Assembly: GCA_020850315.1 (NCBI GenBank)
Contig: JADZEY010000020.1
Location: 21,618-85,617 of the forward strand
Length of the DNA: 64,000 nt
Direction of reading: 5' to 3'
Source: Armatimonadota bacterium
GTDB taxonomy: Bacteria > Bacteroidota > Ignavibacteria > OLB7
Shown: positions 9,010 through 48,648 of the stretch, one piece after another
Layout of the letters: each line of letters starts with the position of its first letter
How positions within the stretch are numbered: the first letter of the stretch is position 1
Position numbers and translations under genes: made by a program
The notes under the pieces: model-generated
Databases searched by the model: none
The model's input: the letters and a program-made list of their open reading frames with translations, nothing else
Told to the model about the DNA's origin: nothing

Positions 9010-9888
9010 TCACCACCGTGCCAGTTGTGCAATTTTTTCTTGGGGAACGTTTGCGGCGATTGCGATTGCAAGGTCGCCATACTTGCCAATGGAAAGGGAT
9101 TGCCCGCTGCCCGACGACTCCATCAGTGTTTCCCCCGCTGCCAGTTTCTGGGCCGCATCCTGCGTCACGTAGAACTGCTTCCCCTGCTGCAGCAACTGCC
9201 ACGGTAGCTGAAGCACGTACATCGTCTGCTGGCCCGAACGGTACACCAAGTGGGCAACCGCAACATTACCGTGATTGCTGACAAAGCCTCCCGCCAATGC
9301 AAGCTGCGTTGTTGGAAATTTTACGGCATAGCGTACCCCGCGCTCCTTAAAAAACTCCGATAGCTCCTCCTTGCTGTCGGTTTCCATCTCCGGCTTCACT
9401 TGGCCGCTAATCAGTGCTGCAACGTTGGAGTTTGCGGCGTTAAAAAGATTCAGCGCGGGAACAGGCTTTCCGCTTGGGGCTGACGCACGGGCGGGGGATT
9501 GAATTGGAAGCGTGGTGGAGGGCTGCTCGGGGCGGTTCAGCAGAAGGATTGCCCCGGCTAGAGCCAATCCCGCCCCCGCAAGCATTCCCCAAGCCCCAAA
9601 TCGCGATGAAGGAGTGCGATCAGCATTGGCCGTGGCCAGCGCAGCAGCATCGCGAACCACGTTTTGTGCGGTGGGTGCGGCTTCCGGCGGCGCGTTGATT
9701 CCCCCAAGCTGGCGTGGTTCGGAAATCGGTTGGGCGGCGCGTTCGCTTACGTTCATCCGCGCAGCCAGCTCGCGCTCGAACGTTGTTTTGCAGTCGTCGC
9801 ATGGGGCTTCGGTTGGGTTCGGTTGGTTCCCGTCGGGGTGATCCTCCACCCACGCGGTTATCTGATTATGAAACTCTTGAGCGGTCAT
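9010..9888 (-). CDS. Putative anti-sigma factor with an N-terminal zf-HC2-like domain, one transmembrane segment and a periplasmic C-terminal domain
   Basis: MTAQEFHNQITAWVEDHPDG...APCDDC has the H-x3-C-x2-C arrangement of zinc-finger anti-sigma factors. A hydrophobic segment (GAWGMLAGAGLALAGAILLL) follows. No ECF sigma gene is adjacent. Confidence 0.5.
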   Translation of the reverse strand: MTAQEFHNQITAWVEDHPDGNQPNPTEAPCDDCKTTFERELAARMNVSERAAQPISEPRQLGGINAPPEAAPTAQNVVRDAAALATANADRTPSSRFGAWGMLAGAGLALAGAILLLNRPEQPSTTLPIQSPARASAPSGKPVPALNLFNAANSNVAALISGQVKPEMETDSKEELSEFFKERGVRYAVKFPTTQLALAGGFVSNHGNVAVAHLVYRSGQQTMYVLQLPWQLLQQGKQFYVTQDAAQKLAAGETLMESSGSGQSLSIGKYGDLAIAIAANVPQEKIAQLARW

Positions 9889-10080: not shown

Positions 10081-12309
10081 ATGTTTGTCGGACGCGAAGA
10101 CGAAATCCATCGAATCCATCAATGCCTTGCCGCAACTGCTCAATCCACTGGTGGCGGGGCCGGAAACCCAGCATCAATCATTGCCATGTACGGGCTGTTC
10201 GGTGCCGGAAAAACCACACTGCTGCGGCGGGTTCGGCGAATTGTTGAAAACGAACGGCTGGCCGATGCCATGTTGGTGATTAACGAAGACGTTACCACCA
10301 CCTCGCTGCCGGAGTTCGTCTATCACCTTGCCACCGGTTTCATTTCGCTTGACCCAGCCATTCCCCGGTTTTTTATTGACGAGACCGATGCCCGCCGCCG
10401 CCGCTACTTGCAAATTATGGGGCGGTTGGGGGCCGACACCATGCCGCTGCTGACCAAACTCCGTACCGAGCTTCACCAGCAATCAAGCCACCCAACCCCG
10501 GAAGGAAAAGCGATTGAGAGTGAGTTGCTGATGCTGGAACACGCCGTGAAAAACCAGTTCAACAACCCCGACGACCAGCGGCTGACGTTGGACACCGGAA
10601 ACGTCCTTGCCGAGTCGTTCATTGTGGATTTGATGAACACCATGTTTCCGCTGACCGACCAGATTGAATCGCTTGAGGCATATCTGCACACCGGGCAAAC
10701 CCCCAAACGGATTGTGGTGGTGATTGATACTTTCGAGAAAATCACCCCACTGCTGAACCCCTGGCTTCTGGAATCCTTGCTGCCATATCTGTACGAAAAA
10801 CGCTTTGGCGATTTCCATTCCTACCGCACGCCATACCTTCCTGCGGGGACGTTCGTGCGGGAGTTCTTCGACGTTCGGTTTGTGATTGCCGGGCGCGAAC
10901 GGTTGTCGCTGACGGATCTTGAACGTCGCTGGGATCGGTATCGCGAGGCGTTGATGGAAATCCCAATCGGGCCGTTCAGCCGCGATGAGCTTGCCGAATT
11001 TTTGCGGATCAGCGGGTTCAATCCAGAAGAGGTATCCGACCGCGTGATGGAGCTGACGCAAGGGCTTCCTTACTTGGTGACGCTCTGGAGCGATGCTGCA
11101 CGCGCCAGCAGCGAGGGGGCCGAGCAATCGTTTGTGAACGCGCTGGCCGAGCAACGGATTTTTTGGTACAAAACCGACCAGCAACGGGAATGGATCCGCG
11201 CCGCCGCCTTCCTTGATTGGTTCGATGCCGATGCCTTGCGCTGTTTCCCAGCCGTTGGCCCCGATGCCGAGCGGGCGTTTGAGTATCTGCGCAACTCTAG
11301 CGAGGTTTCCCGGCCCAGCCAAACAACGGCGGGGAAGTACGAACTGCACGGGATCATCCGCGACGCGCTGCGCCAAGCCACATTCCAGCAAAGCAGCGAG
11401 CGGGGCCAGGCGTTTCTTGAATCGGCCACGGCCTTCCAGAACGCTTGGGGGGTGCTGGCACGGTTCGATTTTGTGGAGCGTGATCTGCTTCGCCGTCTTG
11501 CATTTTTTGCGTGGTTCGATGCCGAGGCAATCCGCCGCTACTGTGGTGGCCAGGCGCACCGGGTCAACGCCATGATTGCTGCCGCCCCCGACCTTTTTTT
11601 GCCAACCAACGGAACTGGCCATCGCCTTGCCCCCGATGCGGCCCAAGTGCTGGAACGCTACAATCGCCGCGCCGAAGCCGACACCTACCAGCAACGGCTG
11701 CAAGAAGTGGAAACGCTGTGGCAAGCGCGGAAGCAGGAACTGGAATCGCAGCTGCACGAACGCCGCCAACGCCTTGCCAGCATCCAAGAAGAACTCCGGT
11801 TCAAGAACGCCGAACGGAAGATGAAAGCGGAGCTGCACCACTCAACACGGGGGACGATGGGGGTGTTGGAGTCTGATCTGCAAACCGCCCGCAAACGCCG
11901 CCGCCAGGGCCTGACCGACCGCGAAGCGGTGATTGCACGCACCAGTTTTTTCTTCATGGTGCTCTGTTTTCTGGTCTTCTTGTTCGTCCGCTCAATCTCG
12001 TTCGATCCCGTCACCCAGCAGCTTATCCGGACCGCCGCGCTGGTGCTGACGTTGCTGTTCGTCTTTGTGTTCGCGCTGATGCTGGGGCGCATCCTGTACC
12101 TGCGAAGCCGCAAAAAGGAGCTTCGGGATCTGCGGGAAGATGAGCTGTCAACCGAAGAACGATTGGCCAGCAAGCGGTACGAGCTTCACACGCTTGGCGC
12201 GGAAGCCGAGGTGGCCGAACGCTCCATTGCCGCGCTGAATGATGAAGCCGCGCTGATCCGCAGCCAAATTGAACAGCTGGAAAAAAGCATAGCGGCCCCC
12301 TACGTCTAA
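10081..12309 (+). CDS. STAND-like P-loop NTPase with a C-terminal coiled-coil and transmembrane hairpin
   Basis: The N-terminus has FVGREDEIHRIHQCL followed by Walker A GLFGAGKTTLL, then Walker B RIVVVIDTFEK, helical repeats, coiled-coil segments and two hydrophobic helices (FFFMVLCFLVFLFV and AALVLTLLFVFVFALMLG). Confidence 0.6.
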   Translation: MFVGREDEIHRIHQCLAATAQSTGGGAGNPASIIAMYGLFGAGKTTLLRRVRRIVENERLADAMLVINEDVTTTSLPEFVYHLATGFISLDPAIPRFFIDETDARRRRYLQIMGRLGADTMPLLTKLRTELHQQSSHPTPEGKAIESELLMLEHAVKNQFNNPDDQRLTLDTGNVLAESFIVDLMNTMFPLTDQIESLEAYLHTGQTPKRIVVVIDTFEKITPLLNPWLLESLLPYLYEKRFGDFHSYRTPYLPAGTFVREFFDVRFVIAGRERLSLTDLERRWDRYREALMEIPIGPFSRDELAEFLRISGFNPEEVSDRVMELTQGLPYLVTLWSDAARASSEGAEQSFVNALAEQRIFWYKTDQQREWIRAAAFLDWFDADALRCFPAVGPDAERAFEYLRNSSEVSRPSQTTAGKYELHGIIRDALRQATFQQSSERGQAFLESATAFQNAWGVLARFDFVERDLLRRLAFFAWFDAEAIRRYCGGQAHRVNAMIAAAPDLFLPTNGTGHRLAPDAAQVLERYNRRAEADTYQQRLQEVETLWQARKQELESQLHERRQRLASIQEELRFKNAERKMKAELHHSTRGTMGVLESDLQTARKRRRQGLTDREAVIARTSFFFMVLCFLVFLFVRSISFDPVTQQLIRTAALVLTLLFVFVFALMLGRILYLRSRKKELRDLREDELSTEERLASKRYELHTLGAEAEVAERSIAALNDEAALIRSQIEQLEKSIAAPYV

Positions 12310-12440
12310 CGGTGCGGCACGCTCACATCCTGCCAACGTTCCTCACTGCATCCTAACCGGTGCTTCGCCGTAGCCGCCGGCGGTCGTATCTTCAAAACCA
12401 ATTCATCAAACCTTCAGGGTAGAAAGATAGAGGTGATGCC

Positions 12441-13793
12441 ATGAAACAACTCCATGTGCTGCTGTTGCTCCTTCTGTCGGTTGTTGGCGTTGTTGGGGTG
12501 GGTGCCCCAGCGGCGGCGCAGCAGAAAGTTTTTGTTGTTGAGATTACCGGCGAAGTGGATATGGGGCTTCCCCCCTACGTCCGCCGTGTTATCAGCGACG
12601 CCACCCAGCAGAAAGCTGCGGCAATCGTCTTCCATATCAACACGTTCGGCGGGCGGGTGGATGCCGCCACCGAAATAAAAGATGCCATCCTGAACTCCAC
12701 CATCCCCACCCTTGCGTTTATTGATAAACGCGCTATCTCCGCCGGGGCCTTGATTGCCCTATCCTGCCAAAAAATTACGATGACCCCGGGCGGTGCAATC
12801 GGGGCGGCAACGCCGGTGTATCAATCGGGGGAGAAGGCATCGGAGAAAGTGGTGAGTTACATGCGGGGCGAAATGCGTGCCACCGCCGAACGCCACAAAC
12901 GGAACCCAGACATTGCCGCAGCAATGGTTGATGAAAACTTCACCCTGGCCGACACTTCGCTGAAAAAAGCTGGCCAGCTGCTGACGCTCACCACCGAGGA
13001 AGCCATGAAGGTTGGATACTGCGATTTCGAGACGGAAAGTCTAGACTCCGTCCTTGCCAATTTTGGATACGCCAACATCGAATACCAACGCCCGCAGCAG
13101 ACTTGGAGCGAGCAGTTGGTGAAGTTCCTGACAAACCCAATCGTGAGTTCGCTGCTGATTATGATCGGCCTTGCCGGAATTTTTTACGGCGTGAAAACCG
13201 GGCATTTGGGGATGGTTGCTGGCGTGGGTGTTGCTGCAATCGCACTCTTCTTTGGGGCGCAGTATCTGGTGGACCTTGCCAGCGCGATTGAGGTGCTGAT
13301 GTTTATCGCGGGGGTGGTGCTGTTGGCCGTGGAAATTTTTGTGATACCTGGCTTTGGGGTCACAGGGATCATGGGGATTCTGCTGATGATCGGCAGCTTG
13401 TTTCTGGCACTCATCGGCAGGTTTGATCTTGTCTCCTACGATTCGCTCACCGTTCCACTGTACACGTTGGCGGCATCACTGGTTGGGCTGGGGGTTCTTG
13501 TTGCGCTGATGATAAAATATCTTCCGCAGTCCAGCGCGTTCAACAAGTTTGTGCTGCAAACCACGCAAAGCTCGGCGGAAGGCTACGTCAGTGGCCCCGA
13601 TTATTCGGGACTGCTGGGCGCAACTGGCCAAGCCATGACCACGCTTCGCCCCGCCGGAACCGCACTGTTCAACAGCAATCGGTTCGATGTGATTACCGAA
13701 GGGGATTACATCAGTGCTGGCGAGGCGGTGGCGGTGGTGCGGGTGGAGGGGCGCAAAATTATCGTCCGGCGGACAGCCGGGGGAACGACCTGA
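12441..13793 (+). CDS. NfeD-family membrane-bound ClpP-class serine protease (long form)
   Basis: Signal peptide, a ClpP-like domain (VFVVEITGEVD...IVFHINTFGGRVDAATEI...AISAGALIAL), four or five TM helices and a C-terminal OB-fold (...VITEGDYISAGEAVAVVRVEGRKIIV). Confidence 0.8.
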   Translation: MKQLHVLLLLLLSVVGVVGVGAPAAAQQKVFVVEITGEVDMGLPPYVRRVISDATQQKAAAIVFHINTFGGRVDAATEIKDAILNSTIPTLAFIDKRAISAGALIALSCQKITMTPGGAIGAATPVYQSGEKASEKVVSYMRGEMRATAERHKRNPDIAAAMVDENFTLADTSLKKAGQLLTLTTEEAMKVGYCDFETESLDSVLANFGYANIEYQRPQQTWSEQLVKFLTNPIVSSLLIMIGLAGIFYGVKTGHLGMVAGVGVAAIALFFGAQYLVDLASAIEVLMFIAGVVLLAVEIFVIPGFGVTGIMGILLMIGSLFLALIGRFDLVSYDSLTVPLYTLAASLVGLGVLVALMIKYLPQSSAFNKFVLQTTQSSAEGYVSGPDYSGLLGATGQAMTTLRPAGTALFNSNRFDVITEGDYISAGEAVAVVRVEGRKIIVRRTAGGTT

Positions 13794-22219: not shown

Positions 22220-24598
22220 ATGCCCGTATTCTACTCCTATTTGCAGTTTCCCCTATTGACGATCCATTGGCAGCGCCTGTTGGGGGGCTTCTGTTTATTG
22301 GCCTGTCTTCTTAGTGCGCAAGCTGTTGCCCAAACCATTCATACTGTTCAGGGAGTTATTGTTGATGAACAAGGTGATCCGCTCCCTTTCTGCACAGTTC
22401 GATTGGTTGGTCAGCAGAAGGGGGGCGACCGCCACACTACCACCACAGCAAACGGGGAGTTTGCGCTCACGGTTGATGATGATGAAGTGTATACCCTTAC
22501 AGCAACACGGGTCGGATTCTATGCTGAAACCATCCCCGTGAGATTCCCCACACCTACACCCGCACAGCCAGTCCGTATTGTGCTTCGGGAGCAATCGTTG
22601 GCCACAAGTGAGGTTGTGGTGACGGCTACCCGTTCGGTTCGCGAACTATCCACGTCGCCAACTTCTGCGACGGTTGTCACCGCACGTGAGATGCGTTCGC
22701 AAGGGGCAAGGCTGCTCGGCGAGGTGCTTGCCGAGCAGCCTGGGCTGGCCATCATCAATGACCACGGGCAAGGGGTACAGATGCAAGGGCTTGACCCAGC
22801 CTACACGCTGATTCTGATTGATGGCGAGCCAGCCGTTGGCCGCACAGCCGGAACCATGAGCCTTGATCGCTTTATGGTTGGTGATTTGGAAAGAGTGGAG
22901 ATTGTGAAAGGCCCTTTTAGCTCACTCTACGGCAGCGAAGCACTGGCTGGAGTGATAAACCTTATTTCCCGCAGGCCAGGGCGTGTTCCGCAATTGTCGG
23001 GATCGGCTGAATACGGAACCAATGGCAGGCGAAATTTTACCCTGAACGGCGAAGGAAAGATTGGTGAGGTGGGGGTGCGGCTTTTTGGTGGCTATCTCGG
23101 CTCCGATGGCTATGATCTAGACCTCTCCAGTCTGTCGCCAACCGTTGCCCCGTTCAATAACTACTCACTTTCTGCGCTGGCCGCATCCCCTCTTACTTCT
23201 GCGATTGATCTTTCCATCAGCGGCAAATTCTCTGCCGAGCGAAGCAGTAGCCAAACTGAGTTAGTGTTGAGCGCAGATACAGTCCTATTTGATGACCGAG
23301 GGCAATTAGATGAATTCAATATCTCTGGTAAAATCGGCTATGCTGTTAGTTCAACATTGCGCCTTCAAAGCAGCTTCTATACCGCACGCTATGCAACCGA
23401 AAGCACCCTTACTTCGCCAACCGACACTGCTTTTGCGAACTACTACCGTAGCATCTTCGATCAAGGGCTAACCAAAGGGGAAATTGTCGCTGACTGGTCT
23501 CCAAATGCAGAGCACTACCTGACTGTGGGGGGAGGTATTGCTGCCGAATCGGTGGAAGCTGAATTGATTGCCGGCGGGGTTCGCACCGCAACCAACGCCC
23601 ATCTGCTGGCACAACATCAGTGGCAACCCAATGCTGAGTTCGGGCTTGTTGCTGGCGTTCGGTTTGATTCCCACAGCGACTATGCTGCACGCCTTAGCCC
23701 GCGGCTTTCACTTCTCTACAAGCCTATCGAGTGGGGAACGGTGCGCTTTTCGGCAGGAAGCGGTTTCAAGGCACCGACATCTCAGCAACTCTATCTCGAC
23801 TTTACTAATCCCACCGTTGGCTACAGCGCATTTGGTGCTGTGGGATTGATGGATGCAGTCAATCGTCTGCGTGATGCAGGGGAGATTCAACGAATGCTGC
23901 GTGACGTGGAAGGTAGCACAGTGCTTCGCCCGGAAAGCTCTATCTCGCTTGGCATGGGATTGCAGGCCGCCCCTCATCCCACTCTGCGCCTGACGCTCGA
24001 CCTTTTCCATAATCGTATTCATGACCTTATTGAAGCCACCGCATTTGCCGTAAAAACCAATGGCCAATATGCTTTTAGTTACTTCAATCTGGAGCGTGTG
24101 GTGACGCAAGGGGCAACCGCCGAGGCCAGTTGGGAGCCGCTGACTGGGCTGACACTTGCAGCCTCCTATCAATTCCTTGATTGCTTTAGTGTGGAAGAAC
24201 AGGAAAGCATTACACGAGGTGATATTCAAAAGGTGGGAGCCACCGGACAGGTTCGCGCTGTGCAGCTGGTGGAGTATGGCGGATTGTTCAATCGTTCGCG
24301 GCATAGCGGCACGCTACGCATTAGCTATAACGATACTGCCACTGGCATCGAGGCTGCACTTCGCAGCACCTTGCGTGGCCGCTACGGCTATGCCGATGCT
24401 AACAGCAATGGCGTGTTGGATGATGCTACCGAGTATCACGCTGGCTACATGCTCTGGAATGCTTCAGTAAGCAAACAGCTTGGCTCATGGCTAACAGCTT
24501 TTGCCACCGCCGAAAACCTTCTTGACCACACCGACCCACAACTCCCCGAGCTTCCCGGAAGGCTGCTTGGCTTGGGGATTCGCGTGGAGTTCCGATAA
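22220..24598 (+). CDS. TonB-dependent outer-membrane receptor (probable haemin receptor, HmuR-like)
   Basis: Signal peptide, a carboxypeptidase-regulatory-like N-terminal domain, a plug domain (...ATRSVRELSTSPTSATVVTAREM...) and a beta-barrel with a C-terminal ...GIRVEF. Followed by an HmuY-like gene and a haem ABC importer. Confidence 0.85.
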   Translation: MPVFYSYLQFPLLTIHWQRLLGGFCLLACLLSAQAVAQTIHTVQGVIVDEQGDPLPFCTVRLVGQQKGGDRHTTTTANGEFALTVDDDEVYTLTATRVGFYAETIPVRFPTPTPAQPVRIVLREQSLATSEVVVTATRSVRELSTSPTSATVVTAREMRSQGARLLGEVLAEQPGLAIINDHGQGVQMQGLDPAYTLILIDGEPAVGRTAGTMSLDRFMVGDLERVEIVKGPFSSLYGSEALAGVINLISRRPGRVPQLSGSAEYGTNGRRNFTLNGEGKIGEVGVRLFGGYLGSDGYDLDLSSLSPTVAPFNNYSLSALAASPLTSAIDLSISGKFSAERSSSQTELVLSADTVLFDDRGQLDEFNISGKIGYAVSSTLRLQSSFYTARYATESTLTSPTDTAFANYYRSIFDQGLTKGEIVADWSPNAEHYLTVGGGIAAESVEAELIAGGVRTATNAHLLAQHQWQPNAEFGLVAGVRFDSHSDYAARLSPRLSLLYKPIEWGTVRFSAGSGFKAPTSQQLYLDFTNPTVGYSAFGAVGLMDAVNRLRDAGEIQRMLRDVEGSTVLRPESSISLGMGLQAAPHPTLRLTLDLFHNRIHDLIEATAFAVKTNGQYAFSYFNLERVVTQGATAEASWEPLTGLTLAASYQFLDCFSVEEQESITRGDIQKVGATGQVRAVQLVEYGGLFNRSRHSGTLRISYNDTATGIEAALRSTLRGRYGYADANSNGVLDDATEYHAGYMLWNASVSKQLGSWLTAFATAENLLDHTDPQLPELPGRLLGLGIRVEFR

Positions 24599-24664
24599 AG
24601 AAAACTTCTAACTGACCACATCAATATCCTAACCAACCCGGGCCAACAGGAGAGGCCCATAACC

Positions 24665-25258
24665 ATGATGCTTACTCGTTATTTCTCTGCCGCTTTTCTT
24701 GCTAGTGCTATCGGCCTTGCATCGTGCGGCGACGACGCAGTTGTTGAGCCAACGCCCACGCCAACCCAGGTTGCAACCACCGCCAAGGATATTCCTGGCG
24801 ACACCGCCAACACTGGCCATTACACCTTCTACCGCCTAAGCGATAGCAGCATTGTCTCGCTGGCGGATTCGGCAACAACCAAGTGGGATATTGCCTTCCG
24901 TGGCACCTCCATCATTGTCAACAGCGGCAGCAGTGGCCCCGGTACAGCCGCCGGGCAAGTGCTGACAGGCGTTGACTTTGACACGCTGAGCATGGCCCCA
25001 GAAGCCGGCTACAATGTTGATGCTCCGAACACGCCAGCCCTGGGTAAAACGTGGTACTCCTACAATCCCACCAACCACCTGATCTCCATTGTCCCCGGCA
25101 AAATTTTTGTGCTGAAAACGGCCGATGGCAAGTATGCAAAGCTGCAACTGTTGGGCTACTACAAAGGCGCGCCAGCTTCGCCAAAACCGGAAGAGCCAGC
25201 CCGATTTTTCACCTTCAAGTACGTGATCCAAAAAGATGGATCAAGGAAGCTGAAGTAA
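24665..25258 (+). CDS. HmuY-like haem-binding lipoprotein
   Basis: Lipoprotein signal (...AIGLASC), size ~197 aa, a WDIAFRG motif and a position immediately after the TonB receptor, as in Bacteroidetes hmuYR loci. Confidence 0.55.
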   Translation: MMLTRYFSAAFLASAIGLASCGDDAVVEPTPTPTQVATTAKDIPGDTANTGHYTFYRLSDSSIVSLADSATTKWDIAFRGTSIIVNSGSSGPGTAAGQVLTGVDFDTLSMAPEAGYNVDAPNTPALGKTWYSYNPTNHLISIVPGKIFVLKTADGKYAKLQLLGYYKGAPASPKPEEPARFFTFKYVIQKDGSRKLK

Positions 25259-26205
25259 TGGTGCGAACAATCAATCGTTCCGGTGCGTGGCCATTCTTGC
25301 TGGCGGTGATTCTTGCAATGGCTGCTTGCCAAAAGCAGGATGCTGAGCAAGGGGTGAAGTCAACTTCGGCACAGGAGGATTTAGCAAAAAAAGAACGGAT
25401 CATCACGCTTGGTGGGCCGGTGACAGAGGTGGTCTATGCGCTTGGTGCGGGGGATCAAGTGATTGCTACCGACATCAGCAGCACGTGGCCAGCGGCGGTG
25501 GCATCACTGAAAAAAATTGGCTACCAGCGGACTCTTTCTGCCGAAAATATCATCGCCTTGGGGCCAACGCTGATCCTTGCTTCGGCGGAGGCAGGGCCGC
25601 CAGCAGCGATTGAGCAGTTGCGGGCATCGGGGATTCGGATAGAGGTGATACCATCGGAGCACTCACTTGCCGGAGCCAAGCAGAAGATTGATGCGGTGGC
25701 AAAAGTTTTGGGCTTGGAGGAATCCGCAAAGCACCTACGCGATACCATCGCCCGCTACGCTGTGGCTGCCGACTCGCTTCAGCGATTGGCCGCCGCAGGT
25801 TCCCCGGCAAAAATCTTGTTCATCTACGCTCGCGGGGCTGGCGCATTGCAGGCATCGGGAAAAGGAACCGCTGCCGATGCGATGCTTGCCGCGTCTGGCT
25901 TGCGCAACGTGGTGACGGAGTACGATGGCTACAAGCCGCTAACCCCCGAAGCAATCGTTGCAGCTAACCCGCAAGTGGTGCTGATGACTACCAGCGGGCT
26001 GCAAAGCATCAGCGGGAAAGAAGGGCTGCTGAAAGCAGTCCCTGCGCTTGCCCAAAGCGATGCGGGGCGCGCCGGGCGGATTGTTGCAATGGATGATGAA
26101 TTACTGTTGGGCTTTGGCCCCCGCTCTGGCCAAGCAATTCTGGAGTTGCGCCGCAAGATTGATTCGGTGCAAGCAATGCAATCACCAACCGCTGCCCGAT
26201 TGTGA
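25258..26205 (+). CDS. Periplasmic haemin/siderophore-binding protein of an ABC transporter (HmuT/FecB-like)
   Basis: Start MVRTINRS overlaps the upstream stop (TAATG). Class III substrate-binding-protein fold (...RIITLGGPVTEVVYALGAGDQVIATD...). Confidence 0.85.
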   Translation: MVRTINRSGAWPFLLAVILAMAACQKQDAEQGVKSTSAQEDLAKKERIITLGGPVTEVVYALGAGDQVIATDISSTWPAAVASLKKIGYQRTLSAENIIALGPTLILASAEAGPPAAIEQLRASGIRIEVIPSEHSLAGAKQKIDAVAKVLGLEESAKHLRDTIARYAVAADSLQRLAAAGSPAKILFIYARGAGALQASGKGTAADAMLAASGLRNVVTEYDGYKPLTPEAIVAANPQVVLMTTSGLQSISGKEGLLKAVPALAQSDAGRAGRIVAMDDELLLGFGPRSGQAILELRRKIDSVQAMQSPTAARL

Positions 26206-27299
26206 ACCGTTCGATTGCACTTCCCACACGCCGCCGCGCTTCCCAACGTATCCACGGCCGCCTTACAACACCACGATTGTTGCAAGGTGGGTTGATGTTG
26301 CTGCTGGTTGTTGTGGTTATGGCCGCCGTTGGCATCGGTGCTGTGGGAATTTCGCCCGCCCAAGTGGTTGCCATTGTGCTTCAGCAGATTGGCATTGATC
26401 TGGGGGGGAGTTTCGGCATGAATCAATCGGGAGTGCTGTTGGGGGTGCGCTTGCCACGTGTGTTGTTGGGGGTTCTGGTTGGTGGCGCGCTTGGCGCGGC
26501 TGGGGCCGCTATGCAAGGGCTGTTTCGCAATCCGCTTGCTGACCCCGGCTTGATTGGGGTCAGCAGTGGGTGCGCGTTGGGGGCTGTGCTTTGCATCGTT
26601 GTTGGCAATGCAATGTTCCCTGCGTTCCTGAATCAACTTGGGCTGTACGCCCTTCCGGTGGCTGCCTTTGTTGGCGGGCTCTTGGCCACGTTGCTGGTCT
26701 ATCGAATCTCCGCACGTAGCGGAATCCGAAGCGTTAGCACAATGCTGCTTGCTGGGATTGCGGTGAACGCCCTGGCAGGTGCGGCCATTGGCCTTTGCAC
26801 CTACCTTGCCACCGATGCCCAACTTCGCAACCTCACTTTCTGGAGCTTGGGAAGCCTTGCCGGGGGAACTTGGGAGACGCTATCGGTGGTTGCCCCGCCG
26901 ATACTGCTTACCCTGCTGCTGCTGCCCCGTTTTGCGCGGCAGTTAAATATGCTGGCATTGGGGGAAGGTGAGGCAGCTCATCTTGGAGTTTCCATCAACC
27001 AGTTGAAATGGCGGGTGACGGGGTTGTGTGCGTTGGCGGTTGGCGCTTCCGTCTCGATGACCGGATTGATCGGCTTCATCCCCTTGATTGCACCTCACCT
27101 TGTGCGCCTCTCTATCGGTCCCGACCATCGCCATTTGATCCCTTGCTCAACATTGCTTGGCGCAGGCTTGCTGGTTGGCGCAGACCTTGCTTCGCGCATG
27201 GTTGTCTCGCCAGCCGAGCTTCCAATCGGCATTATTACCGCCATTGTTGGAGCCCCGTTCTTCTTGTGGCTATTGATGCGCGAGCAGCGAATAGCCTAA
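26202..27299 (+). CDS. Iron/haemin ABC transporter permease (FecCD family)
   Basis: Polytopic membrane protein with FecCD family motifs (...[30 protein letters not shown]...). The start overlaps the preceding gene by 4 nt. Confidence 0.9.
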   Translation: [365 protein letters not shown]

Positions 27300-27411
27300 G
27301 CAAGAAACGCCGAAACCTACCTGCGGCGCGGCCCAAGCGGTTGCCGCCACCCATGCTGAAAACCGCAGTTGAAAACAGCACATTCATTATCGCCGAACCA
27401 GCAAAGCACCA

Positions 27412-28245
27412 ATGGCACTGCAAGCCCGAAACATCACTGTTGAACGCTCCGGCAAACGATTGCTGGACTCCGTTTCCCTTTCGATTAACTGGGGGGAAGT
27501 TGTGGCATTGATTGGCCCGAACGGAGCCGGGAAATCAACCCTGCTGAAAACGTTCAGTGGCACGCTGAACCCAACACACGGCGCGGCTACCTTTGCCGGA
27601 CGTGAGTTATGGGAGTTAAGCCCAGCCGAACGCGCAAGGGTGATTGGGGTGCTGCCGCAGGAGTCGTCGCTGAGTTTGCCCTTCACAGCAATGGAGGTTG
27701 TGGCCATTGGATGCCAAGCTGGCGGAGCCGATGGGGCCCAGGCCGAGCAGATTGCACGCCAAGCATTGGCCGACGCTGACGTTGAGCATCTATCCGAGCG
27801 AATCTACACCACCCTTTCCGGTGGGGAGCGGCAGCGGGTTCACCTTGCCCGCGTGCTGGCTCAGTTGTGGCGTTCGCGCAATCGCGAACGGTACTTTCTG
27901 TTCGATGAACCCACCAGCAGCTTGGACCTTGCACACCAGCACCGGATGCTAAGTGTTGCCCGCCAGTGCGCTGCCGAAGGCGCCGGGGTGTTGGTGATCT
28001 TGCACGACCTGAACCTTGCCGCACAGTATGCAGATCGGATTGCCCTGCTGCACCACGGAGCACTAACCGCCGAAGGCACGCCGGATCACGTGCTGACCCC
28101 CGATGTGCTAGACCCCGTGTTCCAAGTTACCACCTGCGTCTTCCGCCACCCCGGGCTTCCCTGCCCGCTGATTGGTGCGTTTGGCAAGCAAAGCATTGTG
28201 GATGCCGGTATCCCTCACGACTTCATGCAACCAAGTTCAACATAA
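27412..28245 (+). CDS. Iron/haemin ABC transporter ATP-binding protein
   Basis: Walker A GPNGAGKST, ABC signature LSGGERQRV and Walker B FLFDEPTSSLD. Confidence 0.9.
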   Translation: MALQARNITVERSGKRLLDSVSLSINWGEVVALIGPNGAGKSTLLKTFSGTLNPTHGAATFAGRELWELSPAERARVIGVLPQESSLSLPFTAMEVVAIGCQAGGADGAQAEQIARQALADADVEHLSERIYTTLSGGERQRVHLARVLAQLWRSRNRERYFLFDEPTSSLDLAHQHRMLSVARQCAAEGAGVLVILHDLNLAAQYADRIALLHHGALTAEGTPDHVLTPDVLDPVFQVTTCVFRHPGLPCPLIGAFGKQSIVDAGIPHDFMQPSST

Positions 28246-28266
28246 CCTTCCATAAGGAACACAATA

Positions 28267-29343
28267 ATGACGGACACAGCAACCGTAAGCCCAGCCACAA
28301 CCGAGCAGCTTACCGAACTTCGCGCCGCGTGGGACGCACTGCGCCAAGAACAACCTAACCTCCGTATCCGCGACGCTGCACGCCAACTTGGCGTAAGCGA
28401 AGCCCAACTGCTGGCCACCAACTGTGGCCACACCGTGCAGCGATTGCAGGCAGATTGGGGGCAGCTTCTGCTGAAACTGGAATCGCTGGGCCAGGTGATG
28501 GCGCTTACCCGCAACAACCATGCAGTCCACGAAAAAGTTGGGACTTACCACAGTGCTTCGGTCAACGGGCTGATGGGTTTAGTGGTAGATCGTGACATTG
28601 ATCTGCGGGTGTTTTTCAGCCACTGGGAATATGGCTTTGCCGTCACCGAAGAAGGGAAAGGTGGGGTGCGCCGTAGCCTGCAATTCTTCAGTAAACATGG
28701 CGAGGCAGTCCACAAAGTCTATCTGCGCGAAGACTCCAACGCGGCGGCGTATGATGAGCTTGTGAGCCAGTACCGCAGCGAAGATCAATCAGGGCTGATA
28801 GAGGTCACAGACCAACCCATCACCGCCGACCGCCCCGATCAGGAGATTGATTTTGCGGGATTGTACAGCGAGTGGCGCGCCATGGAGGACACACACCAAT
28901 TCTTTGGAATGCTACGCAAGTACAACGTTGGCCGCGTGCAGGCACTGCGCAATGCCGAAGCAGACCTTGCGCGCCCAGTTGCGCTGGATTCCATCCACCG
29001 CGCACTAATCATTGCAGCCCAGGAACAGCTTGGGATTATGGTGTTTGTCAACAGCCCCGGCGTGGTGCAGATACACTCCGGCCCAGTGGAGCGGATTGTG
29101 GTGACCGGGCCATGGGTGAATGTGCTTGACCCAGGGTTCAACTTGCACTTGCGCCAGGATGCAATCGCATCGGCTTGGATTGTCCGAAAGCCAACAACCG
29201 ATGGCGTTGTCACCTCGCTGGAAGTCTTCGATGAAGCAGGGGAGACAATCGCCCTGATGTTCGGCGAACGGAAGCCGGGCAAACCGGAGTTGCCGGGATG
29301 GAGAGCGATTGTGGAGCGGTTGGAAGCTGAGGCAGCAGCATAA
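28267..29343 (+). CDS. Haemin-degrading / haem-trafficking protein of the HmuS/ChuS/HemS family
   Basis: 358-aa two-repeat architecture immediately downstream of the haem ABC importer. The N-terminus ...LRIRDAARQLGVSEAQLL... is typical of ChuS/HemS. Confidence 0.8.
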   Translation: MTDTATVSPATTEQLTELRAAWDALRQEQPNLRIRDAARQLGVSEAQLLATNCGHTVQRLQADWGQLLLKLESLGQVMALTRNNHAVHEKVGTYHSASVNGLMGLVVDRDIDLRVFFSHWEYGFAVTEEGKGGVRRSLQFFSKHGEAVHKVYLREDSNAAAYDELVSQYRSEDQSGLIEVTDQPITADRPDQEIDFAGLYSEWRAMEDTHQFFGMLRKYNVGRVQALRNAEADLARPVALDSIHRALIIAAQEQLGIMVFVNSPGVVQIHSGPVERIVVTGPWVNVLDPGFNLHLRQDAIASAWIVRKPTTDGVVTSLEVFDEAGETIALMFGERKPGKPELPGWRAIVERLEAEAAA

Positions 29344-39735: not shown

Positions 39736-42700
39736 TTAAATCTCCACCGCATCCGCATACACAACCCGGCGGCCATAGCGGCGTTGGGAGATTGTTTGGC
39801 CCGCCCCGCCTCCGGTTTTGTAGGCTACCTCCATGTTGATATGCCGCTCGTATTCCTTCACCACCAAACGGTACGGACGGCTGCCGCGTGGTTCGGGAAG
39901 GGTGATTACGCCGCTCCAGAGCAGCGGAGCTAAGTCGTCGGTGATCTTGTGCGGAAGCAGTTGGATGTCCGCATCCGGCACCGGAACCCATCCCAAATCG
40001 GGGTCGCTGATGTCGCTGCGGCGGGTCTCGACAATCACCTCGAAATCCCCACCATCGCGCTGTGCTTCGGATTTGTTGAACGTGGGGCCAGCAATGGCAA
40101 CACCAATTTTCCGTGGATTCCCTGCGTCGGGGCCGATGGTCATCAGACGGTCGGGGGCAATCTGTGCGAAGTCGGCAAGCACCACCCGCGAGACGAACGC
40201 ATTCTTCACGCTGTTCGGCTGGTACCGCACCAACGCCAGCCGGATAAATGGATAGTAGCTTGGCCCAACATCAATCTGGATATCGCAATACCAGAGCTGG
40301 CGGACTTCATCATACTCCACTTTATGCCCCAACACCGCCAGCGTCGGCTTGGCGGGGATGTAGCTGAGTTCGGGCATGATGGCCAATTCAGCCTTGTCGG
40401 CAAACTCAAGCTCCCGCACCGCTTTCACCCGCGCCTCAGCTTGCGAAAAGTCCAACCGTGGTTGCAGGCTCTTCATGTACAGATCAGCCTTCCGCCACGT
40501 TCCCTTTTTTGCTTCCCCTTGTTCCATGGCCTCTTTTTTTGCGGTCTCTTTTTTTGCGACCTCCTTTTCTGCGGTCTCACTCCCCTGCTTCTTTTTGGTG
40601 TTCAGATAGGCTTGCACAATCGCTTCGTGCTGCTCGGAGGTTGCCAGCGTGGTTTTTTCGGCGGGTTCCTCGCTGCCGGGAATTTCTTCCAGCGACACGC
40701 CGTAGCGATCCTGATGCCACGCCTTGAAGTCGGCGGCTTTCGGGCTTCCGGTGGGGGGGAAGGATGACCAAATTGGATCGGCCCCCCACTGGGTGACGTA
40801 GGGGAGGTACTGCTTCGGGATGTCGGAAAACGCCCCAGTCCAGATCAGCACTCCAAGCCGTTCTTCGTCGCCGGAACTGAACCACGGGCGGTCCAGATAG
40901 ACCCGCAACCCGCCCCCTTTCCGCGCACTGGCAACCGTGGCCCCTTCGGCCTTGGATCCCCAGCCAAATGTTGGAAGGATGTACAGGAGCTTTGGGGCAT
41001 CGGGGCGGGCCGAACTCAAGATTTTTTTCTCCACCATCTCCGAATTCCGCGAGATGTTGTTCTCCACTTTTTGCGGATCATCTGGGTCCGGTTTCAGCAA
41101 TTCCGGCGGCAGATATTCACGGAACCGAGTGGTGGCGTTGATGAAGTAGCGGACCTTCCGGTACTTGGTGTCGCCGAACTCATGCCGCCGCTCGAAATAG
41201 ATATGTGGAGCCTTCGGGTCGTCAACCAACAGCTCACAGACGGTAGCCTTGCCGGGGATCATCTCCCACTTCGGCTTCGATAACGGATCCACTGGTTCTT
41301 CCCACTCGGCGCGGACCTCGGCCCGTGCTGTGGATTTGCAACTGAGCAGCAGTTTGTCGGCCAGCGTGGCGTAGGTGTTCCCAAGAAATTTGCGAACACC
41401 CAAGCTGTCGAACTTCGGGACCCCAAGTGGTTGCTGCGTTGCGTGCACAAACTCTATCGTCCGGTACGGGGTCAGCATCCAAAGCCGCCCGAACTGTGCC
41501 ATTGTGGCAAGCTGCGATAGCGCCGGTGGGTTCAGCTCCTCAATCCAGCTCCAAGCTCCCAACAGCTTCAAGGCTTTTTTCCCGAACACCGATGCGTAGC
41601 GGCAACGGAAAACATCACCTTTGGGAAGGAAGAGGGTGAGCATCCGTTCGCTCGCGCTCCACTCCGGCAGCTTCCCTGCGGCTCCTTCGCGCAGTTGCAA
41701 TCGGAAGGGGAGTTTCTGATACCACTCCCCGCCATCCCCGAAGGCAATCGCCACCGCACCGTTTGGCGCGGAAAGCGGTGGGCCGGGGATTGCAGCTATC
41801 GGCTCGGCCTCCCCTTTGGCCGGAATCATCATCACTTTTCCGGCGGGAATCCCCGGCACGTTGAAGAAGATCACCCCCTCGGCAAGCGGGTCGGGGAGGT
41901 AGGGAAGCTCCCCGATCTGAGTCTCGGTTGCGATTGGGTTGGGCGGGTTCTTGTCCGATGCCGAACCGATCTGTTGGAATCGCCCCTCCTTGCTGGCAAT
42001 CAACTCATACTGTGCTATCAGCGTTGCGTCGTTGGCCAAATCGTCCGCCGGAAGGTCGAACACTCCGTGCGTCTCGGCATCAAGCTGGGCAATGGCTGGC
42101 GGTGTGATGTGGCGTTGGCTGGCGGCATCGGTTGGGGTGGTGTCCAGCGGCTGGCTGCTGTTCATGCTGCGGATCACCAGCCGCTCCAACGATTCGCCGG
42201 GAAGCGTATCAATCGCCTGCTTCAGCACCACAAACGGGTGCGAGACCGGCTCGAATCGGCGATAGATCACCGGCGGCGTTGCCCACTGGGTGTCCGATTG
42301 CGGAAGCGATTTCACGGTTGGCCCGTTCCCTGCCAAATCCACCGCACGGATGCGAATCCGGTACTCCCTCCCGAACCGCAGCATCGGAAGCGACCCCGGG
42401 ATCACGTGGAAGCTGGTCCGGAGTTTGAAGTCGTCGGAAAATTCGTTCGGCGCACGGACTACCTTGCCGTCGTTATCCACCGCCGCGCCGGGGCGTGGGA
42501 CGCTTAGGCTCCACCCTTCCCATGTCCCCATGGATTCGGCCAGGAACAGGTCGTTGGAGGAACCATCGGATGATTCCGTTGTTGCCGTTTGGATGAACCC
42601 TTCATCCTGATGCTCCTCGGCAATGCCAGCCCCGGTGAACTCATACCGCCCTGTCCGCTGGTGCAGTGAGAACCACTGGTTGGCCCCAACATCCAGCACG

Positions 42701-43986
42701 TCCACACGATAGCCACGGATAAGGTCCTCGGCGTAGAACAACGGATCTGTCCCCGACTCCAACTCCGTCCGTTTCTGCGTTGCCGATTTCAGTATTCCCG
42801 CCAGCCGCAGTGCCCTTCCCGTTCGGACGATGGAGATGCCGCCGGTGCGTGGGGCGGGGATGCTGCTGTTGGTGGGGGAGTCGGTGGTGGCGCGCCCCTG
42901 GCGTGCCGAAAGGTTGTAGGCAGCGTTGTGCAGCTTCATCGCCATCCCCTGAACATCCACTTGGACTAAGTGGTAGGCGGGTTGCTTCTGCTGGTCGTTC
43001 GGCAGGGGGTCGCTAAGGCGTATCGCGCCGCTTTCGGCAACCTCCGGCATTGCTGGGCGCGGCTGGGCGATAAATCCGGCATCGAAATACTTGAAGGCGG
43101 TACGCGGCGTGCGGTCCTTTTTGGGCAGCGAAGGAAGGCCGCTTGGCCAGATTGGGATCACTTTGATTTGCCCCGTTGCCGGAAACGCCCCGCCGCTGGG
43201 GATCACCTCCAGATCGAACACCAACCCAAGCCTGCGAAGCATTGATGGATACGCCCCCAACATCGCTACCATCTGGTGGAAATCCAGCTCCGGCGGGTTG
43301 ATAACGCTTTTGCGATGCTGCCCTGTCCGCACAACATTCACCTTGTTGTGAACCGCCGGGGTGTCCGGATCTTTCTTGTTTTTTGGAGCAAAGAAATGCT
43401 GAAGCTGCGCAAAATCTGTGGCGGGGTCTGGGGGGCCGGGGGGGATTGCGCCTAACTTCCTCATCACGGGACGGAACGTCTCGATGATGTTCTTCTCCGG
43501 GGTGGTTCCCACGGTGGAGTTCACCAGTGGATTGCGGTAGGTGTTGATTGGCCCAAGCTGCTTGGCAAGCTCCTCCACGCTGGGGAATTCTTCCGACGCA
43601 CCAAATGCTTGATAGACCTGTTTCAGATAGCCCAGCACGTTGGCCATTGGGTAGCTGAAAATCAAGCGGTTATCCAGCTGATCGAATTGGTACGGGCGGA
43701 CGTAGGTTGTTTTGGGGAACAGTGCTTTCCAGAGCTTCGATTCGGCGGCCAGATTGGGGGCGGGAAGGAATGGTTTGCAGGTGAAAGTGCTGCCGCCAAC
43801 GCTGGCCTGAAACTCCAGTTTGGCCAGCGTGGCGGGCCAATCCAGAAAATCATTGAACTGGCCAAGCTGCTCCGGGATAACATCGGTCTTCAGTTGCGGC
43901 GCAACAACAACGGAAAGGATTGGGTTGCCGCTTCCTTTGGCAATGCTGCGTGGCAGTGCTGTCCATAATATGCTTTGCTCGATCAT
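39736..43986 (-). CDS. Giant hypothetical protein (1416 aa) with no recognisable catalytic motifs, signal peptide or TM segments
   Basis: Uninterrupted 4.25-kb ORF with balanced protein-like composition. The antisense ORFs over it have typical GC-artefact composition. It has no Walker A, HExxH, YD/RHS or CxxCH motifs, and contains an internal K/E-rich low-complexity stretch (KKKQGSETAEKEVAKKETAKKEAMEQGEAKK). Confidence 0.7.
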   Translation of the reverse strand: MIEQSILWTALPRSIAKGSGNPILSVVVAPQLKTDVIPEQLGQFNDFLDWPATLAKLEFQASVGGSTFTCKPFLPAPNLAAESKLWKALFPKTTYVRPYQFDQLDNRLIFSYPMANVLGYLKQVYQAFGASEEFPSVEELAKQLGPINTYRNPLVNSTVGTTPEKNIIETFRPVMRKLGAIPPGPPDPATDFAQLQHFFAPKNKKDPDTPAVHNKVNVVRTGQHRKSVINPPELDFHQMVAMLGAYPSMLRRLGLVFDLEVIPSGGAFPATGQIKVIPIWPSGLPSLPKKDRTPRTAFKYFDAGFIAQPRPAMPEVAESGAIRLSDPLPNDQQKQPAYHLVQVDVQGMAMKLHNAAYNLSARQGRATTDSPTNSSIPAPRTGGISIVRTGRALRLAGILKSATQKRTELESGTDPLFYAEDLIRGYRVDVLDVGANQWFSLHQRTGRYEFTGAGIAEEHQDEGFIQTATTESSDGSSNDLFLAESMGTWEGWSLSVPRPGAAVDNDGKVVRAPNEFSDDFKLRTSFHVIPGSLPMLRFGREYRIRIRAVDLAGNGPTVKSLPQSDTQWATPPVIYRRFEPVSHPFVVLKQAIDTLPGESLERLVIRSMNSSQPLDTTPTDAASQRHITPPAIAQLDAETHGVFDLPADDLANDATLIAQYELIASKEGRFQQIGSASDKNPPNPIATETQIGELPYLPDPLAEGVIFFNVPGIPAGKVMMIPAKGEAEPIAAIPGPPLSAPNGAVAIAFGDGGEWYQKLPFRLQLREGAAGKLPEWSASERMLTLFLPKGDVFRCRYASVFGKKALKLLGAWSWIEELNPPALSQLATMAQFGRLWMLTPYRTIEFVHATQQPLGVPKFDSLGVRKFLGNTYATLADKLLLSCKSTARAEVRAEWEEPVDPLSKPKWEMIPGKATVCELLVDDPKAPHIYFERRHEFGDTKYRKVRYFINATTRFREYLPPELLKPDPDDPQKVENNISRNSEMVEKKILSSARPDAPKLLYILPTFGWGSKAEGATVASARKGGGLRVYLDRPWFSSGDEERLGVLIWTGAFSDIPKQYLPYVTQWGADPIWSSFPPTGSPKAADFKAWHQDRYGVSLEEIPGSEEPAEKTTLATSEQHEAIVQAYLNTKKKQGSETAEKEVAKKETAKKEAMEQGEAKKGTWRKADLYMKSLQPRLDFSQAEARVKAVRELEFADKAELAIMPELSYIPAKPTLAVLGHKVEYDEVRQLWYCDIQIDVGPSYYPFIRLALVRYQPNSVKNAFVSRVVLADFAQIAPDRLMTIGPDAGNPRKIGVAIAGPTFNKSEAQRDGGDFEVIVETRRSDISDPDLGWVPVPDADIQLLPHKITDDLAPLLWSGVITLPEPRGSRPYRLVVKEYERHINMEVAYKTGGGAGQTISQRRYGRRVVYADAVEI

Positions 43987-47013: not shown

Positions 47014-47172
47014 AGGGGGGTGAAGGATGAAGGATGAAGGATGAAGGGTGAAGGATGAAGGGTGAAGGATGAAGAATGAAGAATGAAGAATGAAGAATGA
47101 AGAATAGTCTCTTCGCTACTGACCACTGACTACTGACCACTGACTACTGACCACTGACCACTGACTACTGAC
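46994..47172 (+). repeat. Composite heptamer repeat element (longest copy): (GAAGRRT)x~15, linker agtctcttcgct, then (ACTGACC / ACTGACT)x~9
   Basis: gaaggatgaagagtgaagagtgaaggggggtgaaggatgaaggatgaaggatgaagggtgaaggatgaagggtgaaggatgaagaatgaag(aatgaag)x4 aatagtctcttcgct actgaccactgactactgaccactgactactgaccactgaccactgactactgacc. It fills the entire hemH-hemY spacer and overlaps the hemH stop. Confidence 0.85.
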
Positions 47173-47177
47173 CCACA

Positions 47178-48536: not shown

Positions 48537-48648
48537 ATCCTAACCTCACAATCACCCACAACAATCACCCACAGTTGCGGGGCCACGCGCCAGCCGCTGG
48601 GGGAAGAAAAAAAATCAATCAACAAGCAAGCAACAACCAATACCCTGC

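Follow-up and report, generated by a model that had tools for sequence, protein, structure and literature searches.

We analyzed a 64,000-nucleotide (nt) stretch of contig JADZEY010000020.1 (assembly GCA_020850315.1, positions 21,618 to 85,617 of the forward strand), referred to as the window below, whose nearest public relatives are metagenome-assembled genomes (MAGs) labelled Chlorobiota, Chlorobi bacterium CHB2 or Candidatus Kapaibacterium (Bacteroidota). Three consecutive genes on one strand concern us here. The first encodes a protein of 742 amino acids (aa) predicted to be a membrane-anchored P-loop NTPase of the STAND class, the second a 450-aa long-form NfeD membrane serine protease (NfeD1b, or long STOPP), and the third a 602-aa Omp85-like outer membrane protein (Table 1). 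An earlier reading of the letters alone (the sequence-only reading) had already given the first two open reading frames (ORFs) with the coordinates and lengths that we find, and had proposed that they form a dedicated NTPase-NfeD membrane module, possibly acting in defence or stress sensing.

The extent of the NTPase gene is defined by its ORF, by a start (MFVGR) that is conserved in an alignment of 28 NTPase sequences, and by a structural model and its fold matches. Conservation in this alignment spans the full length of the protein. The motif FVGREDEIHRIHQCL occupies residues 2 to 16 and is followed by a Walker A motif in which G38, G41, G43, and K44 are invariant among the 28 sequences; G41, G43, and K44 are also invariant in a broader alignment of 58 family members. 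Within the Walker B strand (VVVID216-T-F-E219-K220), D216, T217, E219, and K220 are invariant in the 28 sequences, the residue after D216 being Thr and the acidic residue, E219, standing at +3. The sensor-1 residue R272 is invariant in both alignments, and the 28 sequences also conserve its neighbours G271 and E273 and a C-terminal E-P-Y-V. A GLPL-like motif, a hallmark of STAND proteins, has an invariant glycine (G328), with L329 and P330 in at least 90% of the 28 sequences. The N-terminal, Walker A, and hhhhD Walker B motifs on which the sequence-only reading had relied are all present.

Curated models recognize little of this protein. The only Pfam matches (AAA_16, ATPase_2, AAA_22, and nSTAND6, all at residues 2 to 85) are below threshold, and no STAND model exceeds it, the best STAND-type score being 21.6 bits for AAA_16 against a cutoff of 32.6. 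A search of NCBIfam with the NTPase gave no meaningful match, and a PDB sequence search with the profile of the NTPase family found nothing significant. The AlphaFold2 (AF2) model (mean pLDDT, 86.3; pTM, 0.63) contains an alpha/beta nucleotide-binding domain in which a helical insert of ∼110 residues (∼residues 95 to 205) separates Walker A from Walker B. Helical and winged-helix-like modules make up the chain from there to residue 531. Its fold matches are CED-4, Cdc6, NLRs, and MalT, and the structural alignments to CED-4 and NLRs, of ∼480 columns, cover the nucleotide-binding domain (NBD), the first helical domain (HD1), the winged-helix domain (WHD), and the second helical domain (HD2). 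Motifs, model, and fold matches point to a STAND-class fold, the class to which the protein had been assigned from its sequence. No helix-turn-helix (HTH) was seen by Pfam or in the AF2 model, again as had been read from the sequence, and for this reason we rejected a transcriptional-regulator STAND as its identity. The claim of helical repeats did not hold: residues 424 to 531 are helical, but the model has no TPR, LRR, or WD40 array. An N-terminal effector domain is likewise absent from the model, the protein beginning directly at the NTPase.

In the model, the C-terminal third forms an antiparallel two-helix coiled-coil stalk that is tipped by a membrane hairpin. The descending helix (pLDDT mostly 87 to 96, with 68 across its last ∼7 residues) leads into two transmembrane (TM) helices joined by a 4-residue loop, and the second of these continues unbroken into the ascending arm, up to residue 738. 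Hydropathy also predicts two TM helices (peaks at residues 623 to 641 and 654 to 672), and the module of coiled coils flanking two TM helices that had been read from the sequence is borne out.

In every domain of life, innate immunity and cell death have STAND ATPases as their core switches. The closest known fold relatives of the window NTPase are the STAND/AP-ATPases (CED-4, Apaf-1, the NB-ARC of plant NLRs, MalT, and the bacterial Avs proteins) and the Orc1/Cdc6 AAA+ relatives. Unlike STAND/AP-ATPases, it has no N-terminal effector, no TPR, LRR, or WD40 sensor, and no HTH; its Walker B reads D-T-x-E-K rather than DD/DE; it carries the insert between Walker A and Walker B; and it ends in the coiled-coil stalk with the membrane hairpin. 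Avs proteins and bacterial NLRs combine a three-part build (effector, NTPase, and repeat sensor) with a location in defence islands, whereas the window NTPase shows neither and has envelope and metabolic genes as neighbours. In being a P-loop NTPase anchored by a pair of TM helices it resembles the KAP family (PifA and Kidins220) and YobI/Tmn. However, the two TM helices of YobI/Tmn are inserted within the P-loop domain and KAP proteins have four TM helices (PMC13001434), whereas the window hairpin (residues 613 to 668) lies ∼400 residues after the NTPase core (∼residues 1 to 300), at the tip of the coiled coil. A KAP/YobI (Tmn-like) identity was rejected on the position of the TM helices. The dynamin-superfamily GTPases mitofusin, atlastin, and the bacterial dynamin-like proteins also consist of an NTPase head, a helical stalk, a two-helix membrane hairpin, and a returning C-terminal helix. 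The likeness to the window NTPase is a topological analogy only, its fold being of the AAA+/STAND type, with no homology detected.

An exhaustive profile search over 1.84 billion cluster representatives retrieved 1,605 members of the NTPase family at E < 1e-3, 541 at E < 1e-10, and 108 at E < 1e-30, most of them 700 to 750 aa long and matched end to end; a word-indexed search with the NTPase found only 34 clusters, and a metagenome scan with the 28-sequence alignment led to 7 loci. Walker A is present in 57 of 58 family representatives, down to ∼16% identity, and most of them, down to ∼16 to 25% identity, keep the hydrophobic pair at ∼600 to 670. A C-terminal motif like E-[PS]-[YF]-[VI], at or near the end of the protein, recurs from 95% down to ∼20% identity and may serve as a tail for docking or autoinhibition, or as a tag for recognition. 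Pfam matches over the 58 members are weak and scattered (AAA_16, AAA_22, NPHP3_N, nSTAND5/6, NACHT, NB-ARC, and KAP_NTPase), with E values of 1e-4 to 1e-7 for the STAND-type models, weak KAP_NTPase matches in 8 members and weak YobI-ATPase matches in 3. The family is undescribed, coherent, of fixed architecture, widespread, and captured by no curated model.

The second gene encodes a long-form NfeD with a ClpP-like protease, TM helices, and an OB fold, as claimed beforehand. Pfam recognizes all three parts (NfeD1b_N, E = 9.7e-57; NfeD_membrane, E = 1.3e-18; NfeD OB domain, E = 1.1e-11), and the protein aligns to the crystallised protease N-domain of PH1510 from Pyrococcus horikoshii (E = 1.3e-15). 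The two residues that fall on the catalytic dyad of PH1510, Ser100 and Lys136, are invariant in 121 of 121 close NfeD homologues. A hydropathy scan gave four peaks, and the count of five TM helices is the reading that splits the stretch at residues 279 to 327 in two. The protease domain is predicted to face the periplasm and the OB domain the cytoplasm. The window NfeD shares its three-part build (ClpP-like Ser-Lys protease, polytopic membrane domain, and C-terminal OB fold) with the long STOPP of the stomatin-paired systems PH1510/PH1511 of P. horikoshii and YqeZ/YqfA of Bacillus subtilis (PMC4208085, PMC2636767); in contrast to these, the window NfeD has no adjacent SPFH gene, and its constant neighbour is the Omp85-like gene.

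Table 1. Features of the NTPase-NfeD locus in window coordinates
Feature	Position	Strand	Basis
292-aa single-pass membrane protein gene, divergent from NTPase gene	9010..9888	-	context only
NTPase gene, whole, 742-aa predicted membrane-anchored STAND-class P-loop NTPase	10081..12309	+	ORF
Walker A GLFGAGKT, NTPase residues 38-45	10192..10215	+	alignments
Walker B strand IVVVIDTFEK, NTPase residues 211-220	10711..10740	+	alignment
Sensor-1 G271-R272-E273 of NTPase	10891..10899	+	R272 in both alignments
GLPL-like motif G328-L-P330, helical domain	11062..11070	+	alignment
Predicted descending 72-residue helix, residues 536-607, first stalk arm	11686..11901	+	DSSP on AF2 model
Predicted TM hairpin, helices 613-638 and 643-668, 4-residue loop FDPV	11917..12084	+	AF2, hydropathy
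Predicted ascending helix, residues 669-738, second stalk arm	12085..12294	+	AF2
C-terminal E-P-Y-V, NTPase residues 739-742 (P-Y-V, 12298..12306)	12295..12306	+	family motif E-P-[YF]-[VI]
Bipartite promoter-like motif GCATCC-N15-CGTAG in NTPase-NfeD spacer	12348..12373	+	same place in L011, L001, L003
NfeD gene, 450-aa long-form NfeD (NfeD1b/long STOPP) membrane serine protease	12441..13793	+	ORF, Pfam, PH1510 alignment
Predicted signal peptide, NfeD residues 1-26 (...GAPAAA), putative cleavage	12441..12518	+	hydropathy, sequence
Catalytic Ser100 of NfeD, aligned to PH1510 Ser97	12738..12740	+	alignment; PMC4208085
Catalytic Lys136 of NfeD, aligned to PH1510 Lys138	12846..12848	+	alignment; PMC4208085
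NfeD membrane domain, five predicted TM helices	13131..13523	+	Pfam NfeD_membrane, residues 235-358
NfeD C-terminal OB-fold "partner-binding" domain, predicted cytoplasmic	13608..13772	+	Pfam NfeD, residues 390-444
Omp85-like outer membrane protein gene, 602 aa	13823..15631	+	weak Omp85/POTRA matches

An operon of NfeD with an SPFH gene is frequent elsewhere, having been found for 229 of 353 SPFH1 genes (PMC2636767) and in more than 350 genomes (PMC4208085). Pfam scans of ∼45 window ORFs found no Band_7/SPFH domain. Searches (phmmer) with E. coli QmcA, HflK, and HflC (from NC_000913) against six-frame translations of the window and 33 related loci recovered only the E. coli controls, which cross-detected one another at 1e-8 to 1e-15, and the called genes of loci L037 and L038 carry no Band_7 annotation. 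At nine independent NfeD loci (the window with L011, L001, L003, L013, L018, L023, L024, L025, and L037) no SPFH gene adjoins NfeD. The earlier observation that no SPFH gene lies beside NfeD therefore extends from the window to the related loci, and because every independent NfeD locus examined is without an adjacent SPFH gene, the SPFH-less NfeD1b is a property of the lineage and not a peculiarity of the window. At eight of the nine (the window, L001, L003, L013, L018, L023, L024, and L037) an Omp85-like gene comes directly after NfeD, whether the NTPase is present or not, and the NfeD/Omp85-like pairing is more constant than that of NTPase and NfeD. To our knowledge, no pairing of an NfeD protease of the inner membrane with an Omp85-family protein of the outer membrane has been described.

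The order NTPase-NfeD-Omp85-like on one strand was found in the window, L011 (NTPase 95% identical to that of the window), L001/L012 (60%), L013 (56%), L003/L014/L028 (55%), and L018 (48%); L027, which belongs with the L003/L014/L028 group, ends inside NfeD. The adjacency is confined to one Kapaibacterium-like subclade of ∼5 species-level lineages. Across the syntenic loci the identities of NTPase, NfeD, and Omp85-like protein drop in the same order, and co-inheritance of the three is therefore indicated. In L018, which lies in a 3.2-Mb Chlorobiota MAG contig, the protease domain of NfeD has been deleted, leaving a 266-aa short form (12277-13077) with the membrane and OB parts only, 30 nt after the NTPase stop.

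Either gene also occurs without the other. The NfeD of L037/L038 is 63% identical to that of the window, as close as the NfeD of L003, and stands in the same cluster as in L003 (E1 dehydrogenase, PorE/OmpA-like protein, ∼543-aa polytopic protein, NfeD, Omp85-like protein, HAMP-PAS kinase, and response regulator), and the 190-nt gap contains neither an NTPase gene nor a remnant of one. L023 has a homologue of the polytopic protein (∼544 aa), PorE/OmpA-like, NfeD, and Omp85-like genes, again with no NTPase and no remnant; in L024 an M16 peptidase gene precedes NfeD and the Omp85-like gene, with no NTPase beside NfeD; and in L025 NfeD stands alone, with neither NTPase nor Omp85-like gene. When NfeD and the Omp85-like protein were each placed in a neighbour-joining tree, L037 came out as sister to the NTPase-bearing L013, inside the NTPase-bearing group, and from this nesting a loss of the NTPase is indicated. 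The simplest history compatible with these trees would be an NTPase-NfeD adjacency ancestral in one subclade, followed by at least two losses or relocations.

The NTPase in turn lies without NfeD at 10 or more loci (L005/L006, L007, L008, L009, L010, L015-L017, L021, L022, and L026), and no NfeD gene was found within 6 to 10 kb of NTPase orthologues outside the subclade. Orthologues at 33 to 40% identity lie in unrelated housekeeping contexts: in four Chlorobiota MAGs (L008/L009/L021/L022) the NTPase is placed between a hexapeptide transferase gene and an amidase-TatA-purQ-purS-pssA-psd block, and another orthologue sits after the gene for aspartyl-tRNA synthetase. A full-length relative of 21% identity is found among HU, OTCase, and glycosyltransferase genes. 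NfeD homologues at ≥48% identity form more than 120 clusters, against 34 for the NTPase, and none of the NTPase matches from that 34-cluster search was traced to the 3.40-Mb, 3.15-Mb, and 463-kb contigs that bear close NfeD homologues, which is indirect evidence that the genomes in question have no NTPase. The adjacency on which the sequence-only reading built is thus conserved in ∼5 lineages but not in the relatives outside the subclade, in L037/L038, or in L023, and a dedicated NTPase-NfeD module is not supported, NfeD occurring without the NTPase in four lineages. As a separate observation, the amidase-TatA-purQ-purS-pssA-psd block is also present ∼2.7 kb downstream of NfeD in L025, an Ignavibacteria contig; its occurrence near the NTPase in some genomes and near NfeD in another may be the trace of an older shared neighbourhood.

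The reading we favour, to which we give a probability of roughly 55%, is that NTPase and NfeD are two independently functioning inner-membrane proteins rather than a dedicated two-gene system, and that their adjacency reflects shared descent in a cell-envelope gene cluster specific to the lineage. The NTPase comprises, in order, the NBD with its ∼110-residue insert, the GLPL-like helical domain, the winged helix, the second helical domain, the ∼70-residue stalk with its hairpin, and the terminal E-P-[YF]-[VI]. By analogy with other STAND proteins it may act as a nucleotide-dependent switch that oligomerises at the inner membrane, with stalk and hairpin as a putative membrane anchor or sensing element. 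NfeD, with its intact Ser100/Lys136 dyad, is predicted to be an active protease that works without an adjacent SPFH gene across the Kapaibacterium/Ignavibacteria-like lineage, and on the NfeD/STOPP literature its likely role would be envelope protein processing or quality control, independent of SPFH and NTPase.

In the window the spacer between the two genes measures 131 nt, against ∼100 nt in L001 and L003. Within it lies a motif, GCATC[CT]-N15/16-CGTAG, that recurs 62 to 72 nt before the NfeD start in four lineages (besides the window, L011, 12391-12416; L001, 2787-2813; and L003, 8209-8234), and its CGTAG half is also found upstream of NfeD in the NTPase-less L037. The motif appears to fit a separate NfeD promoter, and may be one from which an alternative sigma factor drives NfeD and the Omp85-like gene. 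A scan of the window for sigma-70 promoters and intrinsic terminators gave one promoter-like match, on the opposite strand, and no terminator between NTPase and NfeD; a Bacteroidetes-type TAnnTTTG element was not found upstream of NfeD. In L011 the spacer (12230-12482) is ∼120 nt longer, and in it a T-rich run comes after a GC-rich hairpin (ATTCCCGC-TTTC-GCGGGAAT), an arrangement resembling a terminator.

Several points weigh against two independent proteins. With no terminator between the genes in the window, read-through transcription is possible. Same-strand adjacency has persisted over deep divergence (NTPase identities of 48 to 95% in ∼5 species-level lineages), and in L018 it has been kept even with a protease-less NfeD, 30 nt after the NTPase. 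Our comparisons covered loci and not whole genomes, so that the loss of the NTPase from a locus could be a relocation and an SPFH gene could lie elsewhere. Moreover, the NTPase offers a membrane-proximal cytoplasmic coiled coil, and binding of an OB domain to a coiled coil has a precedent that makes a physical link plausible: in the FloA-NfeD complex of Staphylococcus aureus, the cytoplasmic OB domain of NfeD binds the coiled coil of its SPFH partner (PMC11222466).

In an alternative for this subclade, NTPase and NfeD, possibly with the Omp85-like protein, form an envelope-spanning module: the OB domain of NfeD would bind the coiled coil or the EPYV tail of the NTPase, which would replace the SPFH scaffold and couple ATP-dependent oligomerisation to the periplasmic protease. 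The module would account for the conserved order and strand of the three genes in the window/L011, L001, L013, L003, and L018, for the retention in L018 of exactly the OB-bearing part of NfeD across a 30-nt gap, and for the want of an SPFH gene at every locus; the OB-coiled-coil contact is the known NfeD-flotillin interface (PMC11222466), and in the predicted topology both the OB domain and the NTPase stalk face the cytoplasm. However, the NTPase is missing from an otherwise intact cluster in L037/L038 and L023 and absent beside NfeD in L024 and L025, its orthologues elsewhere have no NfeD within 6 to 10 kb, and a promoter-like motif separates the two genes. The stalk and the C-terminal motif are kept equally in family members without an NfeD neighbour and hence are not specific to NfeD. 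Neither Pfam nor fold comparison detected an SPFH/PHB domain in the NTPase, and the FloA-NfeD clamp, the sole mechanistic basis for regarding the NTPase C-terminus as a stand-in for SPFH, has an SPFH protein as its partner; the stand-in proposed by the sequence-only reading is not borne out, the NTPase having no such domain and the pairing not being conserved. We consider the module unlikely, and a direct link between NTPase stalk and NfeD OB domain unlikely to about the same degree.

A STAND fold is also common to Avs and NLR immune proteins, and the presence of the NTPase varies between sister lineages, as might be expected of an anti-phage or abortive-infection protein whose triggered oligomerisation would cluster the hairpins and damage the membrane or recruit an effector in trans, the adjacency to NfeD being incidental. 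PADLOC gave no credible match for the window NTPase (only DndD, E = 0.057) and no Tmn; no defence, integrase, or transposase genes lie within 45 kb of it; and plasmids, phages, and viral contigs, searched with the window NTPase and the family profile, yielded no homologues. Between the window and L011, the ratio of nonsynonymous to synonymous substitution rates (dN/dS) is 0.068 for the NTPase, close to NfeD (0.074) and to the metabolic gene AtuA (0.070), with higher values for the Omp85-like gene (0.164) and the divergent 292-aa gene (0.154). The NTPase is under strong purifying selection and behaves like a vertically inherited housekeeping gene; it diverges together with its neighbours and keeps stable positions across several species in other subclades, and it has neither an effector domain nor a repeat-type sensor. 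A defence role for the window gene, as had been suggested, finds no support in these data, and we regard it as improbable.

Some distant members of the family (26 to 28% identical) have the same length, the hairpin at the same position, and EPY[IV] at or near the C terminus, and lie in defence-like islands. In L032 (2156-13373) the member is embedded in a type I restriction locus, in the order Fic, NOV_C, HsdS, an AAA_15 ATPase resembling AriA/PtuA/GajA, the NTPase homologue, and HsdR. The homologue has a weak mad8 match (E = 1.2e-4), and plasmid and phage searches with it found nothing. In L030/L033 the NTPase homologue is accompanied by an IS110 transposase, a PD-(D/E)XK nuclease, REase-ARP, and a WYL/WCX regulator. 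L030 (4913-7663) and L031 (1562-4550) share a conserved protein of 179 to 212 aa upstream of the NTPase homologue, at a gap of 18 nt in L030; it matches no family, and a PD-(D/E)xK-like motif (PDYIAV...GEIKSPKE) was read in it by eye. This protein and the distant NTPase homologue may together form a two-gene defence system that has so far gone unrecognised. Beyond the 179- to 212-aa protein, on its upstream side, L030/L031/L033 have three small conserved ORFs, and the WYL/WCX regulator follows in L030. It is known that STAND clades with and without a link to defence intermingle (PMC13581612).

Other contexts suggest a housekeeping ATPase of the inner membrane that serves signalling or assembly, is linked to regulatory partner switching or to the building of the envelope, and is functionally unconnected to NfeD. 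L005 (3716-8741) and L010 (3516-8792) contain a conserved set of genes, for a protein of ∼600 to 650 aa, a 135-aa RsbW/SpoIIAB-like kinase (HATPase_c_2), the NTPase, and a single-pass membrane protein of 140 to 153 aa rich in Lys, Ala, and Gly, the full set being present in L005/L006 and L010; only the downstream ∼140-aa gene was seen in L015 and L029. The neighbours in Kapaibacterium-like genomes (PorE/OmpA-like protein, the polytopic protein, which has a weak match to a putative glycosyltransferase family, and the sensor kinase) and the strong purifying selection on the NTPase are in keeping with such a role. On the other hand, no partner is conserved across all subclades, the ∼600- to 650-aa and 140-aa neighbours match no family, and the evidence is contextual, and we hold this reading to be improbable as well. 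L015 (DASPKH010000385.1), whose NTPase is 40% identical to that of the window and which carries the same downstream small gene as L005/L010, is a 4.1-kb contig binned as "Patescibacteria group bacterium" and is probably misbinned.

The NTPase family is the more novel element of the locus, and the proposed NTPase-NfeD system is not established: it would have been the outcome of greatest interest, but the comparative data weaken it. A large family in which a fixed hairpin stalk takes the place of a repeat sensor and no effector is fused would represent a new wiring of the STAND switch to the membrane, and it is found in housekeeping-like and defence-island settings alike. A broader scheme would have the stalk-and-hairpin STAND family sense or act on the inner membrane, as defence genes in some lineages (with the PD-(D/E)xK-like partner or in type I restriction loci) and, in the Kapaibacterium-like clade, coupled ancestrally through OB domain and coiled coil to the SPFH-less NfeD. 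If this were true, the NTPase would be an ATP-driven replacement for the stomatin scaffold in an envelope-spanning NTPase-NfeD-Omp85 module; we think it distinctly unlikely. The locus also shows that a long-form NfeD can persist lineage-wide without an adjacent SPFH gene while travelling with an Omp85-like gene, a finding that bears on NfeD function.

The GC content of the region (0.57 to 0.58) is the same as that of the rest of the window, and window scans detected no tRNA genes and no Rfam matches. The divergent 292-aa protein upstream of the NTPase is common only to the window and L011 and matches no family; it is laid out like an anti-sigma factor, although without an intact HxxxCxxC motif. 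The other genes of the window are chromosomal housekeeping and envelope genes, among them AtuA, redoxin, OmpA-like proteins, NAD-dependent DNA ligase, CorA, and genes for haem uptake and biosynthesis. A 1,416-aa ORF (39736-43986, minus strand) has no Pfam match at E ≤ 0.01, and three successive ORFs of 236, 240, and 262 aa upstream of a sugar transferase gene (52103-54482, plus strand) have no Pfam match. The haem-related genes form two separate clusters, one for uptake (22220-29343; TonB-dependent receptor, HmuY, periplasmic binding protein, FecCD permease, ABC ATPase, and HemS/ChuX) and one for biosynthesis (45991-50944; ferrochelatase, a protoporphyrinogen-oxidase-like protein, ALAD, and GSA aminotransferase).

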